Shown one piece after another: positions 6,382-60,682 of a stretch of 64,000 bases of DNA. The notes under the pieces are model-generated. The model was given only the letters and a program-made list of their open reading frames with translations, searched no databases and was not told the DNA's origin. Position 1 is the first letter of the stretch, and the number at the start of each line of letters is the position of its first letter. Both the position numbers and the translations under genes were made by a program. This DNA comes from a virus (lineage: Duplodnaviria; Heunggongvirae; Uroviricota; Caudoviricetes): the IMG/VR virus record IMGVR_UViG_3300013132_000019; one strand, written 5' to 3'.

Positions 6382-6847
6382 TTTTAAGTTCTTTTGTTAT
6401 TGTAAAAAACGGATAACCTTTTTGTGATTCATCATAAGCATAGTTCATTAATAGGTTAGTTAGGTTATTATGACTATAATCCCCTCTTCCGTGCCAAGAT
6501 ATAAAGGTTTCGTAACCTGCTGGATTAAACTGGACTAACTTGCAATTGAGTACTCTAGAATTTGCAGTACTTTGGGTATTACCGCCATTAATACAAATTT
6601 GTATTGGTCTTAAATCAATCCGATGTGCGATTTTAATAAATGGTATGGTTTTAACATATCCATGTTTATATGAACCGTCTTCATTTAATATTGGTGAGGT
6701 TTGACCAGTTCTAGCATCAAAATAGTATGCAAACTCGTAATTATCGACAAAGGTTAAGAATGCTATTCGATACGTAGCTAAACCAATTAAGCCTAAAAAG
6801 ATTAACGCACCGACAACCACGCCTAAACTAATTAAATTGTTTTTCAT
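6323..6847 (-). CDS. membrane protein with N-terminal TM helix (174 aa), paralog of 5908..6381
   Basis: Hydrophobic N-terminus, the same duplicated promoter segment upstream. Confidence 0.55.
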   Translation of the reverse strand: MKNNLISLGVVVGALIFLGLIGLATYRIAFLTFVDNYEFAYYFDARTGQTSPILNEDGSYKHGYVKTIPFIKIAHRIDLRPIQICINGGNTQSTANSRVLNCKLVQFNPAGYETFISWHGRGDYSHNNLTNLLMNYAYDESQKGYPFFTITKELKNENYDNKIKSAVDTLSINQ

Positions 6848-13453: not shown

Positions 13454-13527
13454 TTTTCTTTTTTTTTAGTTAATAATTAATTTTAGTTAGTAATTTATAT
13501 TTCGGATACAAATATATGAATTATATT

Positions 13528-13980
13528 TTAATCATCCAAGTTTTTTTCTTCTTTCACGTCAGAAGTTTCCAACCAGAAGTCAGTGAATTGTTCTTTAATC
13601 CAATCAGCCATATCATAATGCTGATTATATGACACGCTATGTGATGTGTCCCATTTTGTTTGATAAACATCACCAAAATCAGCCGTATCTATTGTTGGTG
13701 GGTTCAATGTTTTTTGTTCCCACTTAACCGCATGAATTGAATCAGAATTACGATGTTCAAAAAACGCAACATTCAATTGTCTGCTATAATCTTTAGACTT
13801 AAGTGATAAGACATAACCTTGTTCTCTACAGTTATGCCAACGAGCGACTTTGATTTCAGCGCGATAAACATGTCTTTCAGAATCCCAAGATTCTTCAATA
13901 TCAAACCAACTCAATAGAGCCAACACAGCTTTTGCTGATGGATGCGCACCATCATTCATGTAATCTTTAATTGTTACCAT
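13528..13980 (-). CDS. hypothetical protein (150 aa)
   Basis: ORF with a promoter box at 13509-13516. Confidence 0.5.
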   Translation of the reverse strand: MVTIKDYMNDGAHPSAKAVLALLSWFDIEESWDSERHVYRAEIKVARWHNCREQGYVLSLKSKDYSRQLNVAFFEHRNSDSIHAVKWEQKTLNPPTIDTADFGDVYQTKWDTSHSVSYNQHYDMADWIKEQFTDFWLETSDVKEEKNLDD

Positions 13981-14687: not shown

Positions 14688-14737
14688 TTTACGTTTTTTT
14701 TAGTTTATGGTACAAATATACGAATTATTTTTCAAAC

Positions 14738-17653: not shown

Positions 17654-17684
17654 ATTGCAAATATACAAATTATTTTTTAAATAA

Positions 17685-19693: not shown

Positions 19694-19750
19694 TGCACAA
19701 ATATACAAAATATATTTTAATTAAACAAAATTTTCCCCATATTTATTATT

Positions 19751-35634: not shown

Positions 35635-37293
35635 TCATGACAGTTCAAACTCACTAACAACTAATTTAGCGTTTTCACGCACTTGTTCAAAAGTATAATT
35701 TTTAAGTATTTTACCATTTTCGAAAACTGGCACCAATTCATCGGTGGCTTCTTCAAAACCCTCATCATTTGATGTTAGGGTATAGTAAGAACCGTCTTGG
35801 TCTTTAACCAACTTCAATTGTCCAGACTTAGATTTCTTAAACGATTGTACTTCGTTGAAGTTTTCGTCAATCTCGATAGGACTTTTTGCAACATCAATTT
35901 CCTTACCATCAATAATACTAAAACAACATTTCGTGGCGAAATTTTGAGTATCTCGGTCTATACCAGCTTGCAGCAGTTTACCACCCATCCCAAATACAAT
36001 ATTTTCCGCTGAAATTTTCCTTTCTTTCATCATTTCATATACACCAGCAATGCTATCAATATTAACACCATCCCCTTGAATTATTCGCACTTGTGGTGGT
36101 AACACCTTAAATCCTTTACTGTTTGTTGTATATCCGAAAGTTTCAAATAACGAATCGAACACCATAATCAATGTGTTAATTACATGACCACTATCAGGTC
36201 TTATAACCAATTGATTAGCTGGTTCATTTGGTCTACTCAAAATTTCAGCTTTTAGCTCTTTACCCCATAGATTCTTAACAGCATTCATAATACCAAAGGT
36301 ATCAGAGACACAAGCAACAATACCAGTTGGGTATTTTTCTAACACTCTTCGCATCATATCGACTTCACCTTCTTTACCAAGCAACGTCATAATAGAATGC
36401 TCTGTGGCTGGAACTGATTGCCCATAAACAGTATCCGTATCATAATACTCGCATATTAATCTAGATGCTGCCGTAGTATCTGAACCCCTAAAGTTAACAA
36501 GGTGTGCGGACCCACCAATTTCTGCTGACTGTACGCTTGAAACACCTCTAAAACCAAAGTCATTCAGTACATATTCCATTAAGAATTCTTTGGTTTCGGA
36601 ATCAAAATCCGTTGTTTCATCCCAAGCATTATTAACAATCTTTTTAACTTCCCTTGATAAAGTTGCGACTGTAATTGGATACCAAACCTGCAAAATCAAA
36701 GTCTCCAAGAAATTTGTTAACCATGAACATTTTGGGTCAGTATTCTCAATATATAAAAGCACATTCTTAACCCCAACAACTGAACCTTCGGGAACTGCCT
36801 TTATTTTAATTGGTAATCTACCACCATGATGTTCAACAATATAATCAAATTTGGTTCTATCAAAAACATCTTCTCTACCAAACACACCATGTACAGTACC
36901 CAAATAATCATAAGCCTCATCGACATCTTCTCTTGTTATCGCAACACCCTCAAGATATTGTTTCATAAACCATTGGAGTCCGTAGAATACCGTTTCATTG
37001 AATTTACCACCCCTTGATTCCAGATATGAACCCATTTTTGTCATACCATCTGGATAAAACTTATGGTGTGAATATTTATAAGCATCACCCAATAATACTA
37101 AATTATGTGGTTTATCTAAATATTTCTGTAACATGTCATTAAGTTCCAACATGTCACCATAATTACCTGATTTTAACGCTTGTTTAAGCTGTCTTTTAAT
37201 TTCTCTTTTTAAACTCATAATGTATTTTTTTTTAATTGTGAAATCTAGTTGATGTGAAAAACGCATCCAAAAATTTAATATGTTCTGGTACAA
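35635..37293 (-). CDS. nadV: nicotinamide phosphoribosyltransferase (NAMPT/NadV); the probable true start is MSLKRE at 37218
   Basis: Extensive identity with NAMPT: ETVFYGLQWFMKQYL, KIKAVPEGSVV, NTDPKCSWLTNFLETLILQVWYPITVAT, IRPDSGH, RIIQGDGV. Confidence 0.9.
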   Translation of the reverse strand: MYQNILNFWMRFSHQLDFTIKKKYIMSLKREIKRQLKQALKSGNYGDMLELNDMLQKYLDKPHNLVLLGDAYKYSHHKFYPDGMTKMGSYLESRGGKFNETVFYGLQWFMKQYLEGVAITREDVDEAYDYLGTVHGVFGREDVFDRTKFDYIVEHHGGRLPIKIKAVPEGSVVGVKNVLLYIENTDPKCSWLTNFLETLILQVWYPITVATLSREVKKIVNNAWDETTDFDSETKEFLMEYVLNDFGFRGVSSVQSAEIGGSAHLVNFRGSDTTAASRLICEYYDTDTVYGQSVPATEHSIMTLLGKEGEVDMMRRVLEKYPTGIVACVSDTFGIMNAVKNLWGKELKAEILSRPNEPANQLVIRPDSGHVINTLIMVFDSLFETFGYTTNSKGFKVLPPQVRIIQGDGVNIDSIAGVYEMMKERKISAENIVFGMGGKLLQAGIDRDTQNFATKCCFSIIDGKEIDVAKSPIEIDENFNEVQSFKKSKSGQLKLVKDQDGSYYTLTSNDEGFEEATDELVPVFENGKILKNYTFEQVRENAKLVVSEFELS

Positions 37294-44754: not shown

Positions 44755-44796
44755 AGAGCAAATATATAAATTATTTTATTAATAAACAAATTTTTG

Positions 44797-44871
44797 TTCC
44801 CCCAGCTGGACTCGAACCAGCACCCCTTAATTAAAAGTTAAGTAGTCTAAACCAATTGAACCTATGAGGGA
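44797..44871 (-). tRNA. tRNA-Lys (anticodon UUU)
   Basis: Hand fold. Acceptor TCCCTCA/TGGGGGA, anticodon arm CTTAA-CTTTTAA-TTAAG, T-arm CTGG-TTCGAGT-CCAG. Confidence 0.6.
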
Positions 44872-44879
44872 ATTTAAAA

Positions 44880-44953
44880 TGGAGCCGCATGAGAGAGTCG
44901 AACTCTCGCCTTCTGATTGGAAGTCAGATGTGCTGCCGTAACACCTATGCGGC
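44880..44953 (-). tRNA. tRNA-Gly (anticodon UCC), CCA encoded
   Basis: Acceptor GCCGCAT/ATGCGGC, anticodon arm TCTGA-CTTCCAA-TCAGA, T-arm GAGAG-TTCGACT-CTCTC, followed by TCCA. Confidence 0.6.
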
Positions 44954-44968
44954 AAAAAAAATCAACTG

Positions 44969-45040
44969 AGCACCCACTCAGGCTTGAACTGAGGACTGAA
45001 GATTACAAATCTACCGTTTTCCCAACTAAACTATGGGTGC
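44969..45040 (-). tRNA. tRNA-Thr (anticodon UGU); one U-U mismatch in the anticodon stem
   Basis: Acceptor GCACCCA/TGGGTGC, D-arm GTTT..AAAC, anticodon loop TTTGTAA, T-arm CTCAG-TTCAAGC-CTGAG. Confidence 0.5.
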
Positions 45041-45048
45041 ATTAATTG

Positions 45049-45121
45049 TGGGGAACAATAGACTCGAACTATATTGCGGTTCGCTTTTACAGAGCGTCCG
45101 ACCAACCCTGGGCGATTCCCC
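45049..45121 (-). tRNA. tRNA, probably Tyr (anticodon GUA) with a short variable arm
   Basis: Acceptor GGGGAAT/GTTCCCC, anticodon loop CTGTAAA, T-loop TTCGAGT. Position 8 is C, which is unusual. Confidence 0.4.
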
Positions 45122-45197
45122 TATTTTGTATTATTTTTATAATTAGAGCCTGTGCGTTATCTATAATATGACATCACGCTTTATCTCTAAAGTCAAG

Positions 45198-45270
45198 TTG
45201 CCCCGCTAGGTCTCGAACCTAGACTCTTCTGCTTCAAAAACAGACGTGTTCCCAATTACACCACAGGGCA
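45198..45270 (-). tRNA. tRNA-Gln (anticodon UUG)
   Basis: Acceptor TGCCCTG/CGGGGCA, anticodon arm TCTGT-TTTTGAA-GCAGA, T-arm CTAGG-TTCGAGA-CCTAG. Confidence 0.55.
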
Positions 45271-45307
45271 ATTTAATTATTATCCCGACAATTTGTCGGG
45301 ATTAATG

Positions 45308-45382
45308 TCGGGAGAGTGGGATTCGAACCCACGAACCGATACGTCCAAGGTACCGTTGTATAGCCATCTGCATAACCTCCCG
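45308..45382 (-). tRNA. tRNA-Pro (anticodon UGG)
   Basis: Acceptor CGGGAGG/TCTCCCG, anticodon arm GGTAC-CTTGGAC-GTATC, T-arm GTGGG-TTCGAAT-CCCAC. Confidence 0.55.
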
Positions 45383-47745: not shown

Positions 47746-48132
47746 TCACAACAGTAGCATTAAGGTTAAAAACAATTGTACATAATGTAATACTTGGTCA
47801 AAACCAACGCTAACAAAAAAATTATGCACGTCACCTTTTGCCCACAACCTTGAGTTTAGTCTGCTAGTAAAATAATCAGTAACTGTATGTGATATAAATG
47901 TGATTAAGGTGAACATTATTGAATTCAATACGTACCAATTAGTTGTGTGTCCACCTGACATTAAACCAAAAAGTATACAACTAACAAGTAACCATACCGA
48001 ACTATATGTACTGGTATGCGCTAATAAGTCACGCCAATTATTACTTTTACCTTTAGCTTGTTTATCAGTTTGTAACACAAAATCAGCAAACCAATGGGTT
48101 ATAAGAACTAAAAAAACTACGGTTAATGTCAT
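47746..48132 (-). CDS. integral membrane protein, about four TM helices (128 aa)
   Basis: Hydrophobic segments throughout. Confidence 0.5.
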   Translation of the reverse strand: MTLTVVFLVLITHWFADFVLQTDKQAKGKSNNWRDLLAHTSTYSSVWLLVSCILFGLMSGGHTTNWYVLNSIMFTLITFISHTVTDYFTSRLNSRLWAKGDVHNFFVSVGFDQVLHYVQLFLTLMLLL

Positions 48133-48171
48133 ATTATCTTTTTTATGTTTTTAAATTTTAAAATTAAATTT

Positions 48172-48235
48172 AGATTGGGGTGGGAGTCGAACCCACCTAT
48201 GCCAACCAATCTTGAAGGATTCGAACCCCCGTAAA
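48172..48235 (-). ncRNA. tRNA-like minihelix / pseudo-tRNA fragments (acceptor AGATTGG/CCAATCT plus GTGGG-TTCGACT-CCCAC T-arm, and a second GGGGG-TTCGAAT motif)
   Basis: Two T-arm-like motifs with no complete cloverleaf. Confidence 0.3.
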
Positions 48236-48284
48236 ACAAAGCGGAACCGAAAACTGACAACCATTCAGTTTTAGTTTTAAGCTC

Positions 48285-48387
48285 GTAGTCAGGACAGGAT
48301 TCGAACCTATATGAAGTATCATCTAATGACCTTATTCTTTTACCCACAATGTAGGGTATTATGCGTCTACCAATTCCGCCACCTGAC
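48285..48387 (-). tRNA. tRNA-Leu-like gene (Leu-type D-arm GGTGGCGGAATTGGTAGACGC), 103 nt, with about 18 nt more than a normal class II tRNA; anticodon unresolved; possible small intron or insert
   Basis: Perfect acceptor AGTCAGG/CCTGACT and T-arm ATAGG-TTCGAAT-CCTGT. The candidate anticodon hairpin TACCC-TACATTGT-GGGTA has an 8-nt loop. A separate ATGA-TACT-TCAT hairpin sits where a variable arm would be. Confidence 0.4.
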
Positions 48388-48589
48388 TATATTCGGGACG
48401 GGAGTAAGCCGCTCCCGTTTGTCCCTACTTCTTTACTGTCGTTTGAGTTTTGAGTTTAGGTCTGAAAACTCCTTCGGTAAGGAAAAGGACCACAGTTTTC
48501 TGGAAAACTTACCTAAACCCCTTTATACAACATTTGTTTCATCTCGTTAAACAATAGTCTCATAGGACGAGGACTAAAAAACGGCTTGT

Positions 48590-48719
48590 GGTCAGTAAAG
48601 GATTCGAACCTTTATAAGATGAGGTGTGTTTTTCTCTCAGGGCTTATTACGCGTTACTCACCCGTCTTGATTACCGACACTTGTTACCAATCTGTGTTTC
48701 GCCAATACACCGACTGACC
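48590..48719 (-). tRNA. tRNA-like gene (130 nt) whose ~50-nt internal insert is derived from the 16S rRNA 5' domain (GACGGGTGAGTAACGCGTAATAAGCCCTGAGAGAAA...ACACCTCAT)
   Basis: Acceptor GGTCAGT/ACTGACC, D-arm GTGT-ATTGGCGAA-ACAC and T-arm AAAGG-TTCGAAT-CCTTT are all perfect. The insert contains an exact 18-mer of the universally conserved bacterial 16S region GACGGGTGAGTAACGCGT. Confidence 0.4.
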
Positions 48720-48850
48720 GTTTAAAAAATTCAATGAGGGTTTCCATTTCCTCTCCGATAACTGTTGTCAATGTGATTTGTGTTAGTGTACCTCTAACTT
48801 AGACACATCGGTGACTCCCATTGTATATGGTTTTAACGTCAATTGAATTG

Positions 48851-48980
48851 TAGTCAGGACAGGATTCGAACCTGTACAGTGTAGTTATATTTTCCCGATA
48901 CCTTTGGAAACTTAATTCCTCAATCTTGTGTAATCTACACCATTATCTTTTTTAGCGTCTACCAATTCCGCCACCTGACT
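48851..48980 (-). tRNA. second tRNA-Leu-like gene (same acceptor, D-arm and T-arm as 48285..48387), 130 nt, with a ~45-nt internal insert; anticodon unresolved
   Basis: The exon-like ends are identical to the first copy. The middle segment differs and contains a GTGTA-GAT-TACAC hairpin. Confidence 0.4.
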
Positions 48981-49444
48981 ATGAAATTATCATCTGCCTC
49001 CCACCACAGGAGGATGCAGTTAATCTGAATCCCTTTCACAGTAATCATATTACTAGGTGTACCAGATGCCATTTTGAGTTAATGGTAACCACACTTTCAA
49101 ACAGACAACGCCCTTTGGTGTCGGGCTATACTTTGATGGCAGCTCCAGACCATCTCTTTTCGGAACTTCATAACTGAAAGTACTGTCTGCTGAAACAGAT
49201 GAATTTTAATATTATAAAACCAATTGGATGAGTCAAAATATGTTACGGTTGATGGCCTCGGTGAAATTTTTAGTTTTCATAAAAGCAATTTCAACTTAAC
49301 TTGTACCAAACAACCATAATTCTAAATAGGTGGCCTACACACTCAGCACCAGTTGCATGGTGGCAACCTGAAATGTGGACGATGCTGCCTCGCCATTAAA
49401 CTGCTATCGGCCTACCTTTATAATATTGTCAAAGAACGATGATA
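48981..49444 (-). ncRNA. ~460-nt GC-enriched, structured, ORF-poor leader transcribed from the promoter at 49445 into the tRNA cluster; contains an ATGAAAACT-initiated 15-codon ORF
   Basis: There is a TATATTTG box at 49445-49452 and no ORF of 60 codons or more. Multiple hairpins are present, and gcttttATGAAAACTAAAAATTTC resembles the other cassette leaders. Confidence 0.3.
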
Positions 49445-49476
49445 CAAATATAGTGATTATTTTTCATATCACCAAA

Positions 49477-50037
49477 TTATTTTTCACTTTTTTCTGAATT
49501 TTTTTCTTCTTTAAGTTCAGCTATCATATCTCTAAGTCTAGCAGCTCTTTCATAGTTTTCGGTATCAACACAATACTGCAACTTGGTAGTCAATAGGTCA
49601 AGTTTTTCTTCTTTGGTTATTTCTCGATTTTTAAAAGGTTTCCTATTAGCCGAACCCATCCCGCTAACAAATGAAAAGAAGTCTTCAATATCATTCATAT
49701 TAATACCCAATGAATCATAATCTGTTATACTTTCAATATCAAAATCATCATTCTCAATGTTAATGTTGGTTGACTCAATGATTTTAACTTTACCTGTTGG
49801 TGTATTCCATATTTTTTCAATAAAAGTGTGACCATCTTGTTTAAACTCCCTTACTGAATCTGGTTCACCCAAATCTTCTTTGTCGTTGAAGTGGTGTTCC
49901 CTAAACCCTTTAAGGAATGAACCGAAACCACCAAAACCTCTTATAAAATCATCATCAAATCCGTCACCGAACATATCACCAAAGAAATCGTCATCGTTTT
50001 TTTTCATAGTATTTTTATTTTTTACAAATATACACAA
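49477..50037 (-). CDS. acidic protein with a C-terminal UVR (UvrB/UvrC-type) motif (186 aa)
   Basis: YERAARLRDMIAELKEEK matches the UVR domain consensus. Confidence 0.5.
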   Translation of the reverse strand: MCIFVKNKNTMKKNDDDFFGDMFGDGFDDDFIRGFGGFGSFLKGFREHHFNDKEDLGEPDSVREFKQDGHTFIEKIWNTPTGKVKIIESTNINIENDDFDIESITDYDSLGINMNDIEDFFSFVSGMGSANRKPFKNREITKEEKLDLLTTKLQYCVDTENYERAARLRDMIAELKEEKNSEKSEK

Positions 50038-50074
50038 ATTTTAAACCATATAGGTTTTCCTGTCAAATTGACAT

Positions 50075-50359
50075 TTAAAGTATCTTTTTAATCGTATTCA
50101 AAGTATTTCTTAGTTTTTCTCTAAAATATAATAAAGGGTTTATTTTAGAGAAATAGAAAAATAAGCCAAAGAACAGAGCCGATAGGCAATAGAAAATTAA
50201 AGTTGTAGTCCAATAATCCCCTGTCCAACTCATTATCGATGCAAACGCCACATCGAACCCGAATGGGTTTGTCCAAGTCGCTAGAATTAGACAAATCGTT
50301 GCTATCTTTCTGTTTACTGTCACCATCAGTATTTTCCATGAATTATTATTTAATATCAA
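50075..50359 (-). CDS. small membrane protein (94 aa)
   Basis: Two or three hydrophobic helices. Lies just outside the right end of the IS. Confidence 0.35.
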   Translation of the reverse strand: MILNNNSWKILMVTVNRKIATICLILATWTNPFGFDVAFASIMSWTGDYWTTTLIFYCLSALFFGLFFYFSKINPLLYFREKLRNTLNTIKKIL

Positions 50360-50399
50360 TTCGATTTAATCATCTAATATATGATACTATCGAATTCTT

Positions 50400-50560
50400 A
50401 TTTATTATAAATATGTTAAAAAAAAAAGAAGGGGAGCCATTACGGTCTTTCTTGTGATTCAATGCGCAATCACCACAATAACAATCGGTCTTCGAGAGGT
50501 CGGTGAACTACCCACCCACGCCAGAGGCGATGGGTTGGGCTTCATGAGTCAGCACTCCCA
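50400..50560 (-). ncRNA. candidate omega-RNA (TnpB guide RNA scaffold) overlapping the tnpB 3' end and the IS right end
   Basis: An exceptionally GC-rich, hairpin-rich ~150 nt (for example CCCACCCACGCCAGAGGCGATGGGTTGGG), in the position where IS605-family omega-RNAs are encoded. Confidence 0.35.
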
Positions 50561-51785
50561 CTAACGTGGGCAGTTCGTCATGATTTTTTCTGTCAGTTCC
50601 TGACAAAATATTTCTTAAACTAAAATTTTTAATATTAATTGCCGCATTTATATCCCTATCATGTTCAGTATTACAGTTAACACAAGTCCATTCTCTATCT
50701 TTTAACGTTAGTTCTTTATTAATATAACCACAGTTAGAACATGTCTTTGATGATGGTTCAAATCTACCTATCTTAAGTATATTTGTTCCATACCATTCAG
50801 ACTTATATTCTAACATATTAACAAAAGTTGACCAACTTACATCTGATATTGCTTGTGCTAAATTATGATTTTTAATCATATTACTTACAGCAAGATTTTC
50901 TAAACTGATTGTTTGGTTCTCACGAACCAGTTTAGAAGATATTTTATGCAAATAATCTTTTCTTTTATTTGTTACTTTTTCATGTAACTTTGCTAATTTT
51001 TGTTTTGTTCTTTTTCCTTTATTTTTACTATACTTACTCTGTATGTATTTTAATTTAGATTGTGCTTTACGTAAGTGCTTAGGGTTATCAAATACTTCAC
51101 CATCTGATGTTATTACGAAATCTTTAATTCCTAAGTCTATACCAATAGTAGTTTCTTCTTTTATCTTAGATTTAGGTTTACATTGTTCACCAGTTTCACA
51201 AAGAATGGAAACAAAATACTTACCTGTGGGTGTTTTAGATATTGTTGCTTGTCTTATTTCACCTTTAAGTGGTCTATGTAATATAATATCTAACCCATTT
51301 TTCTTTGTGAATTTAGGTATAATTAATTTATTATTTTCTACTTTTACTCTTTGTGGTATGTTAAAACTACCACCATTAGATTTCTTTTTATACTTAGGAA
51401 ATGAATTTTGACCTTTAAAAAAAGCGGTATATGCTTTATCTAAATTAGTTATACTTTGCTGTAATGATTGTGAATTAATTTCCTTTAACCAAGACAATTC
51501 TTCTTTCAATTCTTTTAGTTGTGAATGCAGTTCAAAACAAGAAAGATTATGTTTATTGCCAGCATAAGCTATTTGTTTGGTTTCCAACGCTAAATTATAT
51601 ATAAACCTAGAAGCACCAATATGCTTATTCAGAAGAACTTTTTGTTCTTCAGTCGGATTAAGTCTATATTTAAAAGCTTTCAACATCATATATAAATATG
51701 TAGAAAAATTAAAAAGTTTAAAGAAAATATAAAATTTATTTACATTTATTGAATTAATGTTGTTATTGTCGCTTTCATCCCACCC
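50471..51785 (-). mobile_element. TnpB-only IS200/IS605-family (IS1341-like) insertion element, about 1.3 kb, with a short inverted motif at the ends
   Basis: tnpB runs 50508..51689. CACAATAACAATCG at 50474-50487 and its inverse CGACAATAACAAC at 51770-51782 flank it. A GC-rich segment overlaps the tnpB 3' end. Confidence 0.55.
50508..51689 (-). CDS. tnpB: TnpB (IS605 OrfB-family RuvC-like RNA-guided endonuclease), 393 aa
   Basis: N-terminal FKYRLNPT. RuvC-I IGIDLGIKDF. Zinc finger CSNCG...CVNC. RuvC-III DRDINAAINI. Confidence 0.8.
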   Translation of the reverse strand: MMLKAFKYRLNPTEEQKVLLNKHIGASRFIYNLALETKQIAYAGNKHNLSCFELHSQLKELKEELSWLKEINSQSLQQSITNLDKAYTAFFKGQNSFPKYKKKSNGGSFNIPQRVKVENNKLIIPKFTKKNGLDIILHRPLKGEIRQATISKTPTGKYFVSILCETGEQCKPKSKIKEETTIGIDLGIKDFVITSDGEVFDNPKHLRKAQSKLKYIQSKYSKNKGKRTKQKLAKLHEKVTNKRKDYLHKISSKLVRENQTISLENLAVSNMIKNHNLAQAISDVSWSTFVNMLEYKSEWYGTNILKIGRFEPSSKTCSNCGYINKELTLKDREWTCVNCNTEHDRDINAAINIKNFSLRNILSGTDRKNHDELPTLVGVLTHEAQPIASGVGG

Positions 51786-51930
51786 ACTTTCTATGTAAGT
51801 TTCAGGTTCACGTTTCTAACTGCTTCAAAGAAAAAATTTGATGTTAATACGAATTTGCTGAAATGAACCTTTAATGTTTTAATTTCAAAGAACAATACAA
51901 ATATACAAATTATATTTTAATTGTGCAAAT

Positions 51931-52338
51931 TTATTCATAAAAAGTTACCATTCTTTGTTGCGGTCTAACTTCACGGCAAGAACCCCAACCGTCAAATTCA
52001 GTACCATGGTATGATTGATACCAACCATCAACTCTGACATAAACATCATGGTCAACAAAATGGTATACAATGTACCATTCTTCACCTTCACCTTCACCAC
52101 CGTGTTGGTCAACAACATTTACGGTACCAAATTTAGTCGTTTTAAGATATTCCTCTCTTCGTTGCTTTCTAGACTCATAGTCACTATCAAGTTCTGGCAT
52201 GAAATCATTTGGTACCGTGATGTAGTAAAAACCATCATGAGCAAATTCTGAAACGTCACCAAAGGTAGCTTCAATTTCCGTCATTAATTCTGAGAATGTT
52301 AATTTTTCCATTTTTTTTCTAATTTTAAAGTGATTCAA
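51931..52338 (-). CDS. hypothetical protein (135 aa)
   Basis: ORF. Confidence 0.5.
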   Translation of the reverse strand: MNHFKIRKKMEKLTFSELMTEIEATFGDVSEFAHDGFYYITVPNDFMPELDSDYESRKQRREEYLKTTKFGTVNVVDQHGGEGEGEEWYIVYHFVDHDVYVRVDGWYQSYHGTEFDGWGSCREVRPQQRMVTFYE

Positions 52339-52561
52339 ATTTTGTTATTTTAACTTCCGTTGGTTCAACGAACTGTATACCAATCAATTCCTTATATCCA
52401 TAGGAATCTCTGTAGTAGTCTAATTTAATATATAATTTATCAGATAATTTTTTAACCTCATAACATGATTGGTCATCGTCATAATCATAAGGTGTTCTGG
52501 ACTCAGCTATTTCGAGTCCGTTAACATTATGTAATAATTTGTTAATTTCAGTTAAGTTCAT
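52325..52561 (-). CDS. hypothetical protein (78 aa)
   Basis: ORF. Confidence 0.4.
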   Translation of the reverse strand: MNLTEINKLLHNVNGLEIAESRTPYDYDDDQSCYEVKKLSDKLYIKLDYYRDSYGYKELIGIQFVEPTEVKITKFESL

Positions 52562-53315
52562 AGTTTAATTGATTTTTAATTAAGTTAATAAAATTGATTT
52601 CGGCTCTATTGATTTTTAAATAATTTTCAACAACAAATGGGAACATCCATATTGGCGCATGTTGCATGATGAACTTCTTTAACATCTTTGAATATGCAAT
52701 CAAATAATGTTTATTCTTATACCGTTCATAAGCCATAACATACACTTCTTCCCTAATAACATCAAGTTTCTCATTTAATGATAACCCATTGAATTTATCT
52801 TCAGATATTTCAACGTCCTTACCGTCAACCAATATTTTTTGATATGTTGGTTCTGGATTGATTAATGTATGTAAATGGTCATGCTCATGTTCATCATAAT
52901 TGATAGCGTTAGTGAAAAATTCATCCTTTGTCATATTAAGATTGCTCCTTCTATGTCTTGGGTGAAAATCTTTCCAATAATCATATAACTCCAATAACAG
53001 ATTATAATCATATTGACAACCCTTTTTCAATAAGAACTGCACATCCCACATATGTTTATCCCAATTGATGTTGAAAAATAAATGAGACATCTTAAGTGTC
53101 AATAACATATTCGGGTCAATATACTTCTGACCATCTGAGATATGCTTGAATAAAATTGGATTTTCCAAATACTCAACCTCTCTGGTGGTTTTAAGACCTT
53201 CAGTTGATTCAACAGCAATGTCGATATCTTTTGGTTCCCTATTAAAGTCAGGGAAATGATACCTCATTGCTGTTGAACCTATTATCAACTCTTTATTGAT
53301 TGTCTCATTTTGCAT
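52548..53315 (-). CDS. nucleotidyltransferase-fold protein (start corrected to MQNETINK), with a pol-beta-like GS...D.D motif
   Basis: IGSTAMRYHFPDFNREPKDIDIAV, plus the His-rich EHEHDHLH. The track start MYICTM is the promoter box read in frame. Confidence 0.4.
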   Translation of the reverse strand: MQNETINKELIIGSTAMRYHFPDFNREPKDIDIAVESTEGLKTTREVEYLENPILFKHISDGQKYIDPNMLLTLKMSHLFFNINWDKHMWDVQFLLKKGCQYDYNLLLELYDYWKDFHPRHRRSNLNMTKDEFFTNAINYDEHEHDHLHTLINPEPTYQKILVDGKDVEISEDKFNGLSLNEKLDVIREEVYVMAYERYKNKHYLIAYSKMLKKFIMQHAPIWMFPFVVENYLKINRAEINFINLIKNQLNYELN

Positions 53316-53351
53316 GGTACAAATATACAAAATATTTTTAACTATGCAAAT

Positions 53352-53792
53352 CTATTTTCTTTTACGTTTATTTTTCCTAGATGTTTTTTTCTTAATCTTG
53401 TTAGATTTACTTTTGTTTTTAGACTTATGGTTCTTAATTCTATATCGATTTTTTCGTTTCTTTGATTTAGCTAATGTTCTTGATTCTTTGCTTGACATGT
53501 AACCACCATCACCACCTTCTTTGAGGTTTAAACATTTGGAATCTTTTAATATATCACCAGTTACAATAGTTTTTTCGATTTCAGATAATATTTTTCGATT
53601 ATCAGCAAAAGCTAATATTTCATTGACATGATTTTCAACACCATATTTCTTCACCGAATGTTTCAACAAAACACCTGAACCAATATACCCATCGTTAAGG
53701 TCACTGGTTGAATGTATACCAATATAATATTTACCAGTTACCTGACAGGTTGTTTTGTATATATAATGATATTTTTTATTATTGTTCGCCAC
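53352..53792 (-). CDS. GIY-YIG endonuclease (Seg-like homing endonuclease) with a basic C-terminal tail; GTG start
   Basis: KYHYIYKTTCQVTGKYYIGIHS is the GIY-YIG signature. The C-terminus is Lys/Arg-rich. It lies adjacent to a tRNA cluster. Confidence 0.6.
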   Translation of the reverse strand: MANNNKKYHYIYKTTCQVTGKYYIGIHSTSDLNDGYIGSGVLLKHSVKKYGVENHVNEILAFADNRKILSEIEKTIVTGDILKDSKCLNLKEGGDGGYMSSKESRTLAKSKKRKNRYRIKNHKSKNKSKSNKIKKKTSRKNKRKRK

Positions 53793-53811
53793 AATAATAA
53801 ATATTTTAAAG

Positions 53812-53884
53812 TGTAGCGTATCGGCCTCGAACCGATGACTCCGCCTTGCAAGGGCAGTATTATAGCCAGCTTAACTAACACCAC
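53812..53884 (-). tRNA. tRNA-Ala (anticodon UGC) with a G3:U70 pair
   Basis: Acceptor GTGGTGT/ACGCTAC, anticodon arm CTGCC-CTTGCAA-GGCGG, T-arm ATCGG-TTCGAGG-CCGAT. Confidence 0.6.
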
Positions 53885-53909
53885 AATAAGTGCCAAAAAT
53901 ATGTCTAGG

Positions 53910-53982
53910 CGGACGCCACGGGGGTTGAACCCGCAATCTCAGCCGTGACAGGGCCGTATGTTACCAACAACACCTCGCGTCC
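53910..53982 (-). tRNA. tRNA-Asp (anticodon GUC)
   Basis: Anticodon arm CGGCC-CTGTCAC-GGCTG, T-arm GCGGG-TTCAACC-CCCGT. Confidence 0.55.
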
Positions 53983-54035
53983 GTTAATATCCGTCTTTCC
54001 AGATTGTCAAAAGGCTTTAAAACTCTATATTTTCA

Positions 54036-54109
54036 GTAGTCCGTATGGGATTTGAACCCATGACTCCGCTGTGAAAGAGCGGTGACTTAAACCACTTGTC
54101 GAACGGACC
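54036..54109 (-). tRNA. tRNA-Glu (anticodon UUC)
   Basis: Acceptor GGTCCGT/ACGGACT, anticodon arm CCGCT-CTTTCAC-AGCGG, T-arm ATGGG-TTCAAAT-CCCAT. Confidence 0.6.
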
Positions 54110-54115
54110 GTTTTG

Positions 54116-54188
54116 TGTGATGGGTTGGAATCGAACCAACATTATCGCTTTTTCAGAGCGACACCTTGACCAACTTGGTAACCACCAC
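54116..54188 (-). tRNA. tRNA-Phe (anticodon GAA)
   Basis: Acceptor GTGGTGG/CCATCAC, anticodon arm TCGCT-CTGAAAA-AGCGA, T-arm GTTGG-TTCGATT-CCAAC. Confidence 0.6.
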
Positions 54189-56991: not shown

Positions 56992-57051
56992 TTGCGAACT
57001 TTATAATAAATAGTTTAGTAATTCTACAAATGTACTAAAATTTAATTAATG

Positions 57052-57129
57052 TGGGCAAGACGGGAATCGAACCCGTATATCCTTTACTTTTGAGGTAAAG
57101 AGGCTTCACCAGCTTTCCATCACTCGCCC
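57052..57129 (-). tRNA. tRNA with a Leu anticodon (CAA) but class-I architecture (short variable arm, enlarged D-loop)
   Basis: Acceptor GGGCGAG/CTTGCCC, anticodon arm TTTAC-CTCAAAA-GTAAA, T-arm ACGGG-TTCGATT-CCCGT, D-loop containing AAAGCTGGTGAAG. Confidence 0.5.
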
Positions 57130-57139
57130 AAATTTTTAG

Positions 57140-57217
57140 TAGGGAAGACGGGAGTCGAACCCGTATATCCTTTGATTTTAAGTCAAAGAGGCTTCACCAG
57201 CTTTCCATCACTTCCCC
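57140..57217 (-). tRNA. paralogous tRNA with a Leu anticodon (UAA), same atypical architecture
   Basis: Acceptor GGGGAAG/CTTCCCT, anticodon arm TTTGA-CTTAAAA-TCAAA, T-arm ACGGG-TTCGACT-CCCGT. Confidence 0.5.
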
Positions 57218-57447
57218 TTAACTACCTTATCAAAAAAGCCTTTTGGCATATTAGCGTTCATCGTCATAAACTCTTCTTCTGTTTGAATACCTTCGTTCGC
57301 TTCCCACATACTTTTACAGTATTCTATAAAGGCATTACCATGGTTTTTGGTCATGTATTTGAAGTCATACTTGAAGTTGTTTACGTCAGAATCATAATCC
57401 ATTGTTTCAATGAACTTATCCCATGCAACTTTTTTAATTTCACGCAT
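57208..57447 (-). CDS. hypothetical protein (79 aa)
   Basis: ORF whose 3' end overlaps the 5' end of the adjacent tRNA by a few nt. The start may lie later. Confidence 0.35.
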   Translation of the reverse strand: MREIKKVAWDKFIETMDYDSDVNNFKYDFKYMTKNHGNAFIEYCKSMWEANEGIQTEEEFMTMNANMPKGFFDKVVKGK

Positions 57448-57472
57448 AATTAATTTATTAACTCATTATCTG

Positions 57473-57550
57473 TACGGGTAGAGGGAGTCGAACCCCCAAA
57501 TCAGCAGTTCCTAAGACTGCTCGGCTTCACCAAACTTTCCGCATACCCGC
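57473..57550 (-). tRNA. third paralog with a Leu anticodon (UAG), same atypical architecture
   Basis: Acceptor GCGGGTA/TACCCGT, D-stem CGG/CCG with a 14-nt loop, anticodon arm GCAGT-CTTAGGA-ACTGC, T-arm GGGGG-TTCGACT-CCCTC. Confidence 0.5.
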
Positions 57551-57559
57551 ATTTTTTTG

Positions 57560-57631
57560 TACCCCAGACTGGAATCGAACCAGTTCTCCCGCCATGTAAA
57601 AACGGAGCGCTAACCATTACACCACTGGGGC
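57560..57631 (-). tRNA. tRNA-Val (anticodon UAC)
   Basis: Acceptor GCCCCAG/CTGGGGT, anticodon arm CCGTT-TTTACAT-GGCGG, T-arm ACTGG-TTCGATT-CCAGT. Confidence 0.55.
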
Positions 57632-57751
57632 TTACTTGAGAAGATGGTCAGATTCGAACTGACGTAAACATGATTTGCAGTCATGTGGCTAATTCCAACT
57701 CACCCACACCTTCAATTATTTTATTTCAAAGAACCGATAAAAAACAAAAAA

Positions 57752-60642: not shown

Positions 60643-60682
60643 TTTTAATTATTACAATACAAATATATAAATTATCTTTTAA

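Follow-up and report, generated by a model that had tools for sequence, protein, structure and literature searches.

A TnpB and omega-RNA module with a broken left end in a large uncultured phage, probably acquired without a transposase

The stretch of DNA analyzed here, 64,000 nt of the IMG/VR virus record IMGVR_UViG_3300013132_000019 (a tailed phage; hereafter "the window"), carries on its minus strand a gene for TnpB, an RNA-guided nuclease, together with an overlapping omega-RNA-type scaffold. The reading that we favor, to which we assign a probability of about 0.6, is that this module of an IS1341-type insertion sequence (IS) of the IS200/IS605 family arrived by a recombination event that did not involve a transposase, came with a piece of flanking DNA from its donor, and is now immobile. 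The left end of the element is broken, its right end is followed by foreign DNA, and the insert has split a phage terminator, which together argue for entry without a transposase and against any further excision by the transposase TnpA. Below, we describe the module, the family to which it belongs and the phage locus into which it was inserted, and weigh this reading against its alternatives.

Results

An intact TnpB and a conserved RNA scaffold

The tnpB coding sequence (50508..51689, minus strand) encodes a protein of 393 aa with the RuvC residues D185, E264, and D346 and zinc-finger cysteines C317, C320, C336, and C339. The Pfam domains HTH_OrfB_IS605, OrfB_IS605, and Cas12f1-like TNB are all found in this open reading frame (ORF), which scores 338 bits against the NCBIfam model guided_TnpB (cutoff of 100 bits) and 410 bits against the IS200_TnpB equivalog model, slightly under its cutoff of 425 bits. 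Alignment to the ISDra2 TnpB structures 8H1J and 8BF8 (E ~1e-69) pairs D185, E264, and D346 with D191, E278, and D361 of ISDra2. A preliminary description of this DNA, made from its letters alone, had credited the gene with all RuvC and zinc-finger motifs, and the alignment bears this out: the ORF is whole, no frameshift or loss of RuvC residues was seen, and the 1182 nt of coding sequence carry no lesion. Across codons 1–355, dN/dS values of 0.09 to 0.17 relative to homologous copies demonstrate purifying selection at the sequence level on the TnpB family overall, which is not to be read as constraint on the immobile window copy.

Three other kinds of system were considered for this gene and rejected. 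The presence of D185, E264, and D346 rules out a TldR, that is, a nuclease-dead TnpB-like repressor. For a type V CRISPR-Cas (Cas12) system, no repeat array was found in 48000-54000, and the Cas12-type NCBIfam model reached 96 bits, compared with a cutoff of 350 bits. As to an IStron, no group I intron match was obtained (49500-52500 scanned with E-values up to 10, the whole window at the gathering threshold), and only ~100 nt lie upstream of tnpB.

A strikingly GC-rich region (52–54% GC at 50450-50600, vs ~28% nearby) covers the 3' end of the gene and folds better than shuffled sequences (z = −3.1). To model it, 30 related loci (cited below by L numbers) were retrieved from IMG/VR, and the last 120 nt of 20 copies were aligned. 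The resulting scaffold (50503..50622, minus strand; RNAalifold and covariance model), for which the 3' 120 nt are modeled, has three stem-loop domains with five helices, overlaps tnpB codons ~356–393, and finishes at the right end of the element (...GGGTGGGTAGTTCAC). Of the 30 base pairs predicted by RNAalifold, 20 are supported by compensatory changes; 98.5% of alignment cells are paired on the predicted structure, compared with 36–46.5% when the partners are slid, and none of 500 shuffles reached the observed values. With a covariance model derived from this alignment, 50503-50622 scores 142 bits and is the sole match in the window; the model also finds the scaffold at the tnpB 3' end in relatives down to ~40% aa identity. 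Synonymous divergence falls from ~0.6 in codons 1–355 to 0.12–0.31 in codons 356–393, as expected for an overlapping functional RNA. In terms of sequence covariation, conservation of the RNA scaffold is thus shown, and the omega-RNA-type, hairpin-rich stretch that the preliminary description had placed over the 3' end of tnpB stands; in the window copy, all 30 pairs are free of lesions. The comparison with Rfam that had been proposed at the same time was made and yielded tRNAs only, with neither an omega-RNA nor an intron family (49500-52500 scanned by E-value, the whole window at gathering thresholds). Taking protein and RNA together, we regard the homology-based identification of the feature as a TnpB and omega-RNA module as secure. 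Additional omega-RNA-like or right-end-like structures occur at L013 6586-6714, L025 243-370, and L019 6127-6214, without an adjoining full-length TnpB match in the fetched flanks; these could represent solo ends or second elements.

Of 50,697 deposited phage records, 436 contain TnpB relatives; a phage-borne TnpB is thus not in itself notable, as the preliminary description had held it to be; TnpB in phage genomes has also been discussed for cyanophages (10.64898/2026.02.14.705889). A megablast search of the region against deposited phages gave no match, and a distant blastn search of the element against the same set returned only partial matches of 66–69% identity, for example in Lak phages and Clostridium phage c-st.

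Ends and target motif of the element family

IS200/IS605 elements have hairpin ends and neither terminal inverted repeats nor target duplications, and the IS1341 group within this family is TnpB-only (PMC13565253); indeed, most tnpB genes belong to such TnpB-only, IS1341-like elements (10.1101/2023.03.14.532601). Among the loci studied here, 19 distinct copies have a canonical left end consisting of TTTAC or TTTAT, a linker of 12 to 13 nt, the tetranucleotide AAAG, and a hairpin (CCCACTCATC...GTGGGTGGG). The target-adjacent motif (TAM) is TTTAC in 16 of these copies and TTTAT in the other three, and hairpins are present at both the left and the right end in 19 relatives. More than 20 copies all diverge right after TTCAC, that is, after ...GGGTGGGTAGTTCAC, and the right end of the window copy is exact at 50503 (...GTAGTTCAC).

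The distance from the left end to the tnpB start is only ~100 nt, with no tnpA inside the element. A tblastn search with an approximate IS608 TnpA sequence as query revealed no Y1 transposase gene, either in the window or at a distance of up to 5 kb from close copies; matches were obtained only beside distant copies from Clostridia. Given this absence, the family is, judged by gene content and ends, a TnpB-only (IS1341 group) branch of IS200/IS605 that inserts 3' of TTTAC, in line with the TnpB-only, IS200/IS605-type element that had been proposed for this phage.

The same cannot be said of the inverted motif that had been taken to flank the element. Its 10-nt core (ACAATAACAA) is perfect, but one half lies inside the element (51759-51771) and the other beyond the right end (50474-50487), and matches of such length are at chance level, being seen in 1.7–3.3% of window pairs (shuffled or random) and, among other copies, in 5% of cross-pairs. 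Nor is the motif a feature of the family, the mean match being 7.41 for own pairs and 7.43 for cross-pairs.

Some observations concern the variability of the ends. The first ~7 nt of the left end are hypervariable among otherwise near-identical copies. In two of the 19 canonical copies, L040/L064 (TTTGA/TTTGA) and L068 (ATTAT/ATTAT), the 5 nt that follow the TAM recur as the start of the right flank, while in the others the match is at chance (~27% per position); such short repeats are surprising, since the family is not expected to make target duplications. An idea that the many homologous contigs of 1.3 to 1.5 kb represent a multicopy repeat was withdrawn, as ten P0004 contigs turned out to be one locus in different samples.

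The phage unit at the insertion site

Upstream of the module lies a phage promoter (51898..51929, minus strand) composed of TTTG (51929-51926), a 20-nt spacer, and TATATTTG (51905-51898). The motif TTAAAATATAATTTGTATATTTGTA, which contains TTTG-N20-TATATTTG, occurs six times in the window, always on the minus strand (13507-13531, 14711-14735, 17656-17680, 19696-19720, 51896-51920, and 60658-60682), compared with 0 expected occurrences, and is conserved in related phages; weaker copies stand ahead of neighboring genes at 49443, 50023, and 53318. The promoter box that the preliminary description had recognized at 51899-51906, upstream of the element and outside it, falls within this motif. We take the TTTG/TAnnTTTG pattern to be the Bacteroidota −33/−7 consensus.

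What lies downstream of this promoter when the IS is absent was seen in related phages (L035, L037, L038, L039, and L065-L067), which are ~80% identical to the window and empty at the window insertion site. These empty sites, a check for which had also been suggested, were located through protein database and contig look-ups; the flanking proteins of 135 and 186 aa had no relatives in IMG/VR. In the empty alleles, the promoter is followed by ~125 nt without an ORF and by an intrinsic terminator (GAAAGGGTTAA-TTAACCCTTTC plus T-run), the hairpin of which is strongly predicted (ΔG of −14.8 kcal/mol, z = −5.2). The window retains the 5' part of this small noncoding unit up to the terminator 5' arm (GAAAG, ending at 51787) at 51787..51897 (minus strand), with 87% mean identity to L035, L037, L038, and L039. 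The rest of the terminator, its 3' arm (CCCCTTC) with the T-run, is homologous to CCCTTTCATTTTTTT in the empty alleles and follows only at 50418..50434 (minus strand), parted from the 5' arm by the insert. Hence, the element did not land between a phage promoter and its gene, as had been supposed, but within the terminator hairpin of a noncoding promoter-to-terminator unit.

This unit is a repeated insertion site for the IS family. It is intact in L035 (4930-5100), L065, L066, and L067, where it corresponds to window 51787-51929 plus 50418-50434, and it may encode a phage small RNA. In L034, a phage 95% identical to the window, the whole segment of promoter, unit, and IS (window 50413-51930) is replaced by 61 unrelated nt (6382-6442), which indicates that the unit itself is a variable cassette.

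A broken left end and a foreign right flank

Homology of the window copy to other copies starts at 51787/51786 (1-nt ambiguity), within the 3' arm of the left-end hairpin. What remains of the left end (51690..51786, minus strand) is this 3' arm (TGGGTGGGATGAAAGCGAC), followed by the tnpB leader. All that canonical copies carry ahead of this arm is gone (TAM, linker, AAAG guide tetranucleotide, and the hairpin's 5' arm and loop), while the right-end hairpin is present. No TTTAC is found at the left junction, which lies in the terminator hairpin, 8 nt past a TTAC.

On the other side, the right end is followed by a flank that was apparently co-inserted with the IS (50435..50502, minus strand) and has no counterpart in the empty alleles or other copies. 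A 78-nt query from this region gave no match in the empty alleles, the other copies, or the collections searched (deposited phages and all fetched loci). The length of the flank is either 49 nt (to TCAC at 50454) or 68 nt (to 50435), depending on where the right junction is placed. The ambiguity stems from an imperfect direct repeat made up of ATAGAAAG (51794-51787) and AAGAAAG (50453-50447), with TCAC ahead of the second part. The possibility that the flank supplies a terminator of its own was discarded, as it folds no better than shuffled sequences (z = +0.9).

By family architecture, the guide segment of an omega-RNA lies directly beyond the right end (10.1101/2023.03.14.532601). Because all copies diverge at 50503, the guide of the window copy should start at 50502, and the predicted segment, the first 16 to 20 nt beyond the right end, is CGACCTCTCGAAGACCGATT (50483..50502, minus strand). 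The preliminary description, which let the element reach ~50400 and sought the guide near 50450-50470, had misplaced these features by ~30 to 100 nt. A separate observation is a 26-nt direct repeat (81% identity) whose parts, 1285 nt apart, lie at 50406-50431, in phage sequence past the split terminator, and at 51691-51716, just upstream of the tnpB start; it may be due to chance in AT-rich DNA or may serve as a substrate for deletion of the module.

Given the lost 5' arm, the absence of a TAM at the junction, and the foreign flank, the window copy is, as far as its ends can tell, an immobilized and noncanonically acquired module rather than an intact IS. An alternative is that it is a canonical, still mobilizable IS1341-type element inserted 3' of the TTAC at 51798-51795, in which case the DNA after the right end would be native, the guide would target the phage's own empty site, and an empty allele ...AAACTTAC|CGACCTCTCGAAGACC... 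should exist in this phage lineage. Such an insertion would account for the CTTAC 8 nt upstream of the conserved left-end sequence and for the AAAG directly before the hairpin arm, and the distance from TTAC to the right end, 1292 nt, is within the range of the family (1290–1328 nt). However, an ungapped comparison of the 14 nt from this TTAC to the junction with the empty alleles gives 11 identical positions out of 14, as phage sequence would and a left end would not; the 5' arm and loop of the hairpin are absent; nothing in the empty alleles corresponds to the sequence beyond the right end; and the guide 20-mer is absent from all collections searched. We therefore consider this alternative very improbable. 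A variant in which canonical insertion at CTTAC was followed by deletions in the left end was likewise judged less likely than noncanonical capture, again because of the homology of the 14 nt from TTAC to the empty alleles.

Canonical insertions in sister phages

Four sister phages (L040, L041, L042, and L064) carry a TnpB that is 93% identical (aa) to that of the window, in the same promoter-terminator unit but 43 nt upstream. Here, the IS sits exactly after TTTTTAC, and its right flank (TTTGAAGCAGTTAGAAACG...) is identical to the empty alleles, so that filled and empty alleles form a clean pair with insertion after TTTAC. The TAM and guide of L042 and L064 perfectly match the co-circulating empty alleles L035, L065, and L067. 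TnpB has a role in homing, and its cleavage is sensitive to TAM mutations (10.1101/2023.03.14.532601); judged by these matches, the sister copies are in the standard homing configuration. At the sister target site, the window is uninterrupted, with TTTTC (51834-51830) in place of the TAM TTTAC and with the protospacer TTTGAAGCAGTTAGAAACGT at 51829-51810.

Sister filled and empty alleles occur in backbones that are 97–99.6% identical. This polymorphism is consistent with, though not proof of, transposase-independent homing as the process behind the observed alleles. Between L040 and L042, which share one TAM site, the backbones are 99.6% identical and the IS copies only 90.7%, which suggests that IS alleles were replaced or arrived independently at that site.

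Loss of the left end is not confined to the window. The left-end hairpin of the L040 type is internally deleted, and L004/L005 lack it; hence, the left end has been lost while the right end and RNA were kept in three independent phage copies (window, L040/L041/L064, and L004/L005). Such retention could mean that the window copy is a domesticated weapon, i.e., an immobile TnpB with a fixed guide that is kept to cut a specific sequence in a host or competitor phage, as free-standing homing endonucleases do in marker exclusion or interference when phages coinfect; the killing of competitor phages with homing endonucleases has been reviewed as a concept (PMC13565253). The intact catalytic residues, low dN/dS, position downstream of a phage promoter with a destroyed terminator, and guide derived from foreign DNA all fit this idea. 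On the other hand, searches of the window, IMG/VR, and the JGI metagenomes yielded no target of the guide, dN/dS reflects constraint on the family and not on the immobile copy, the identical copies from three samples are uninformative on selection within the lineage, and the close relative L034 lacks the module. We regard domestication as decidedly improbable.

The absence of the module from the 95%-identical L034, together with the broken left end, the noncanonical insertion, and the lack of a guide target in the same collections, could also be taken to indicate a recently acquired, functionless relic that is heading to decay, with ORF and RNA intact merely for want of time. Neither the 1182 nt of coding sequence nor the 30 RNA pairs show a lesion, though, and several other left-end-defective copies also retain intact TnpB and RNA, which makes a relic unlikely in our view. 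A broader proposal, quite unlikely on present data, is that large Bacteroidota-type phages keep transposase-independent TnpB and omega-RNA modules as RNA-guided nucleases for homing or interference between coinfecting phages, in which case the guide in the window would be aimed at a competitor phage or host locus.

Surroundings of the module and probable host

The window is AT-rich (~31% GC), all of its listed ORFs of at least 150 aa are on the minus strand, and it holds 14 to 15 tRNA genes with clusters at 53811-54188, 44796-45382, and 57051-57713, in agreement with the tRNA region that the preliminary description had seen next to the element. Proteins in the window match phage families (DNA transfer protein, RNA ligase/tail-fiber attachment catalyst, homing endonuclease, and nicotinamide phosphoribosyltransferase [NAMPT]). 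On the basis of these matches, and because the best NAMPT matches come from uncultured phages of 636 to 642 kb, the window is assigned to a large uncultured phage. The NAMPT gene itself, an auxiliary metabolic gene at 35635-37293 (minus strand), is 50–52% identical to these best matches. A JGI contig of 100 kb and two Logan assemblies contain sequence identical to the window, and an identical TnpB of 392 aa (P0002) is reported from a 266-kb contig.

The closest bacterial homologs of the IS, 60–76% identical, come from metagenome-assembled genomes of Bacteroidales, Sphingobacteriales, Balneolaceae, and Flammeovirgaceae and from two of Saccharibacteria. A Bacteroidota host is therefore likely, and the fit of the repeated promoter motif to the −33/−7 consensus points in the same direction.

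Two neighboring features deserve mention. A 146-aa ORF at 53352-53792 (minus strand), which matches the phage homing-endonuclease family phrog_314 and adjoins tRNA-Ala (53811-53884), is a second selfish nuclease, 1.7 kb from TnpB; its counterpart in L034 is shorter (121 aa). The region 48150-49450 has 38–47% GC and no long ORF; it contains a 103-nt tRNA (48286-48388) called by Rfam and missed by ARAGORN, and two more GGATTCGAACC-type repeats (48586-48614 and 48848-48876) that resemble the T-arm/acceptor ends of tRNAs. These tRNA-like features may be unusual or intron-containing tRNA genes.

Discussion

Proposed course of events

In the scenario that we favor, the module would have entered the phage not by the "peel-and-paste" mechanism of Y1 transposases but by illegitimate or microhomology-mediated recombination with an IS-carrying genome, in which donor flank was brought along with the module. 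The resulting copy would no longer be excisable by TnpA. As the terminator is interrupted by the insert, transcription from the phage promoter at 51898-51929 is expected to read through into tnpB, and TnpB would bind the 3' scaffold of the read-through transcript. The ribonucleoprotein would be programmed by CGACCTCTCGAAGACC(GATT), that is, by donor flank, and would cut TTTAC-flanked copies of CGACCTCTCGAAGACC, namely the empty donor locus in a host or a coinfecting phage. Since the window contains no guide site flanked by TTTAC, the nuclease would be, in this phage, a selfish passenger without a local target.

Some points weigh against this scenario. Both the position of the right junction and the mechanism of recombination are ambiguous from the sequence, and the TTAC at 51798-51795, 8 nt upstream of the junction, and the AAAG before the hairpin arm leave some room for a canonical insertion with two later deletions in the left end. 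The phage genome measures at least 266 kb, of which the window covers 64 kb, and TnpA could lie elsewhere in it. A search for targets of the guide, as the preliminary description had recommended, yielded no match to the 20-mer in the window, IMG/VR, or the JGI metagenomes, a data set that lacks the phage's own contig, and bacterial genomes were not scanned for the guide. Finally, expression and cleavage by the window copy are activities that we infer from its sequence.

Significance and comparison with known systems

The locus is an ordinary, though well-resolved, case of TnpB, and nothing in it changes existing knowledge of this protein. It does show, as a clean example from nature, the life cycle of TnpB in phage populations, with the sister lineage showing a textbook TAM, insertion, and guide equal to the empty allele, and the window lineage showing the outcome when a module is acquired without transposition machinery. 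Two aspects are of modest interest: left ends have been lost repeatedly from copies that keep the nuclease-RNA module, and phage populations are polymorphic for filled and empty alleles. If the transposase-independent copies are active, RNA-guided homing or interference would extend from bacterial chromosomes to phage–phage competition, and the window would provide a compact nuclease of 393 aa with a defined TAM (TTTAC) and a well-resolved scaffold.

Among known systems, the protein is close to ISDra2 TnpB from Deinococcus radiodurans (Protein Data Bank 8H1J, 8BF8, and 8EXA), to which it aligns over residues 4–358 and with which it shares domain order and length, the D-E-D RuvC triad, the CxxC...CxxC zinc finger, a scaffold that extends over the 3' end of the gene, and a guide taken from DNA beyond the right end. 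Sequence identity is moderate, however, the TAM of the family is TTTAC rather than TTGAT, and, unlike ISDra2, the family has no tnpA partner and the window copy has a truncated left end. With regard to the ends, IS608 (ISHp608) from Helicobacter pylori offers a parallel. It too has a target ending in TTAC and an AAAG directly 5' of the foot of the left-end hairpin; its right end finishes with TCAx and has a GAAx tetranucleotide 5' of the right-end hairpin, corresponding to TCAC and GAAG in the present family. Both lack terminal inverted repeats (PMC13565253). In contrast to the TnpB-only family described here, which prefers TTTAC or TTTAT, IS608 carries tnpA.

ISGst2 TnpB2 from the IS1341 group of Geobacillus stearothermophilus (10.1101/2023.03.14.532601) is similarly TnpB-only, with an overlapping omega-RNA and a T-rich TAM of 5 nt (TTTAT in ISGst2). 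Homing of ISGst2 relies on cleavage of the empty donor joint (10.1101/2023.03.14.532601), and the sister copies L042 and L064 show the corresponding match of TAM and guide to empty alleles. The window copy differs in that it would not be mobilizable in trans, its left-end hairpin being broken, and in that its guide mismatches its own insertion site.

At the population level, the locus resembles the free-standing homing endonuclease genes of T4-like phages (Seg and Mob; "intronless homing"): a polymorphic nuclease gene lies between conserved phage genes, filled and empty alleles occur in close relatives, and the nuclease alleles are more divergent than the backbone (here, 90.7% vs 99.6% identity). 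Recognition here would be RNA-guided and not protein-based, and homing in phages by this element is putative. TldRs (PMC10705468), finally, offer a parallel for an immobile gene of the TnpB family with a fixed guide beside non-transposon genes; unlike in TldRs, the RuvC triad in the window is intact, and no regulated gene such as one for flagellin or an ABC transporter is associated with it.

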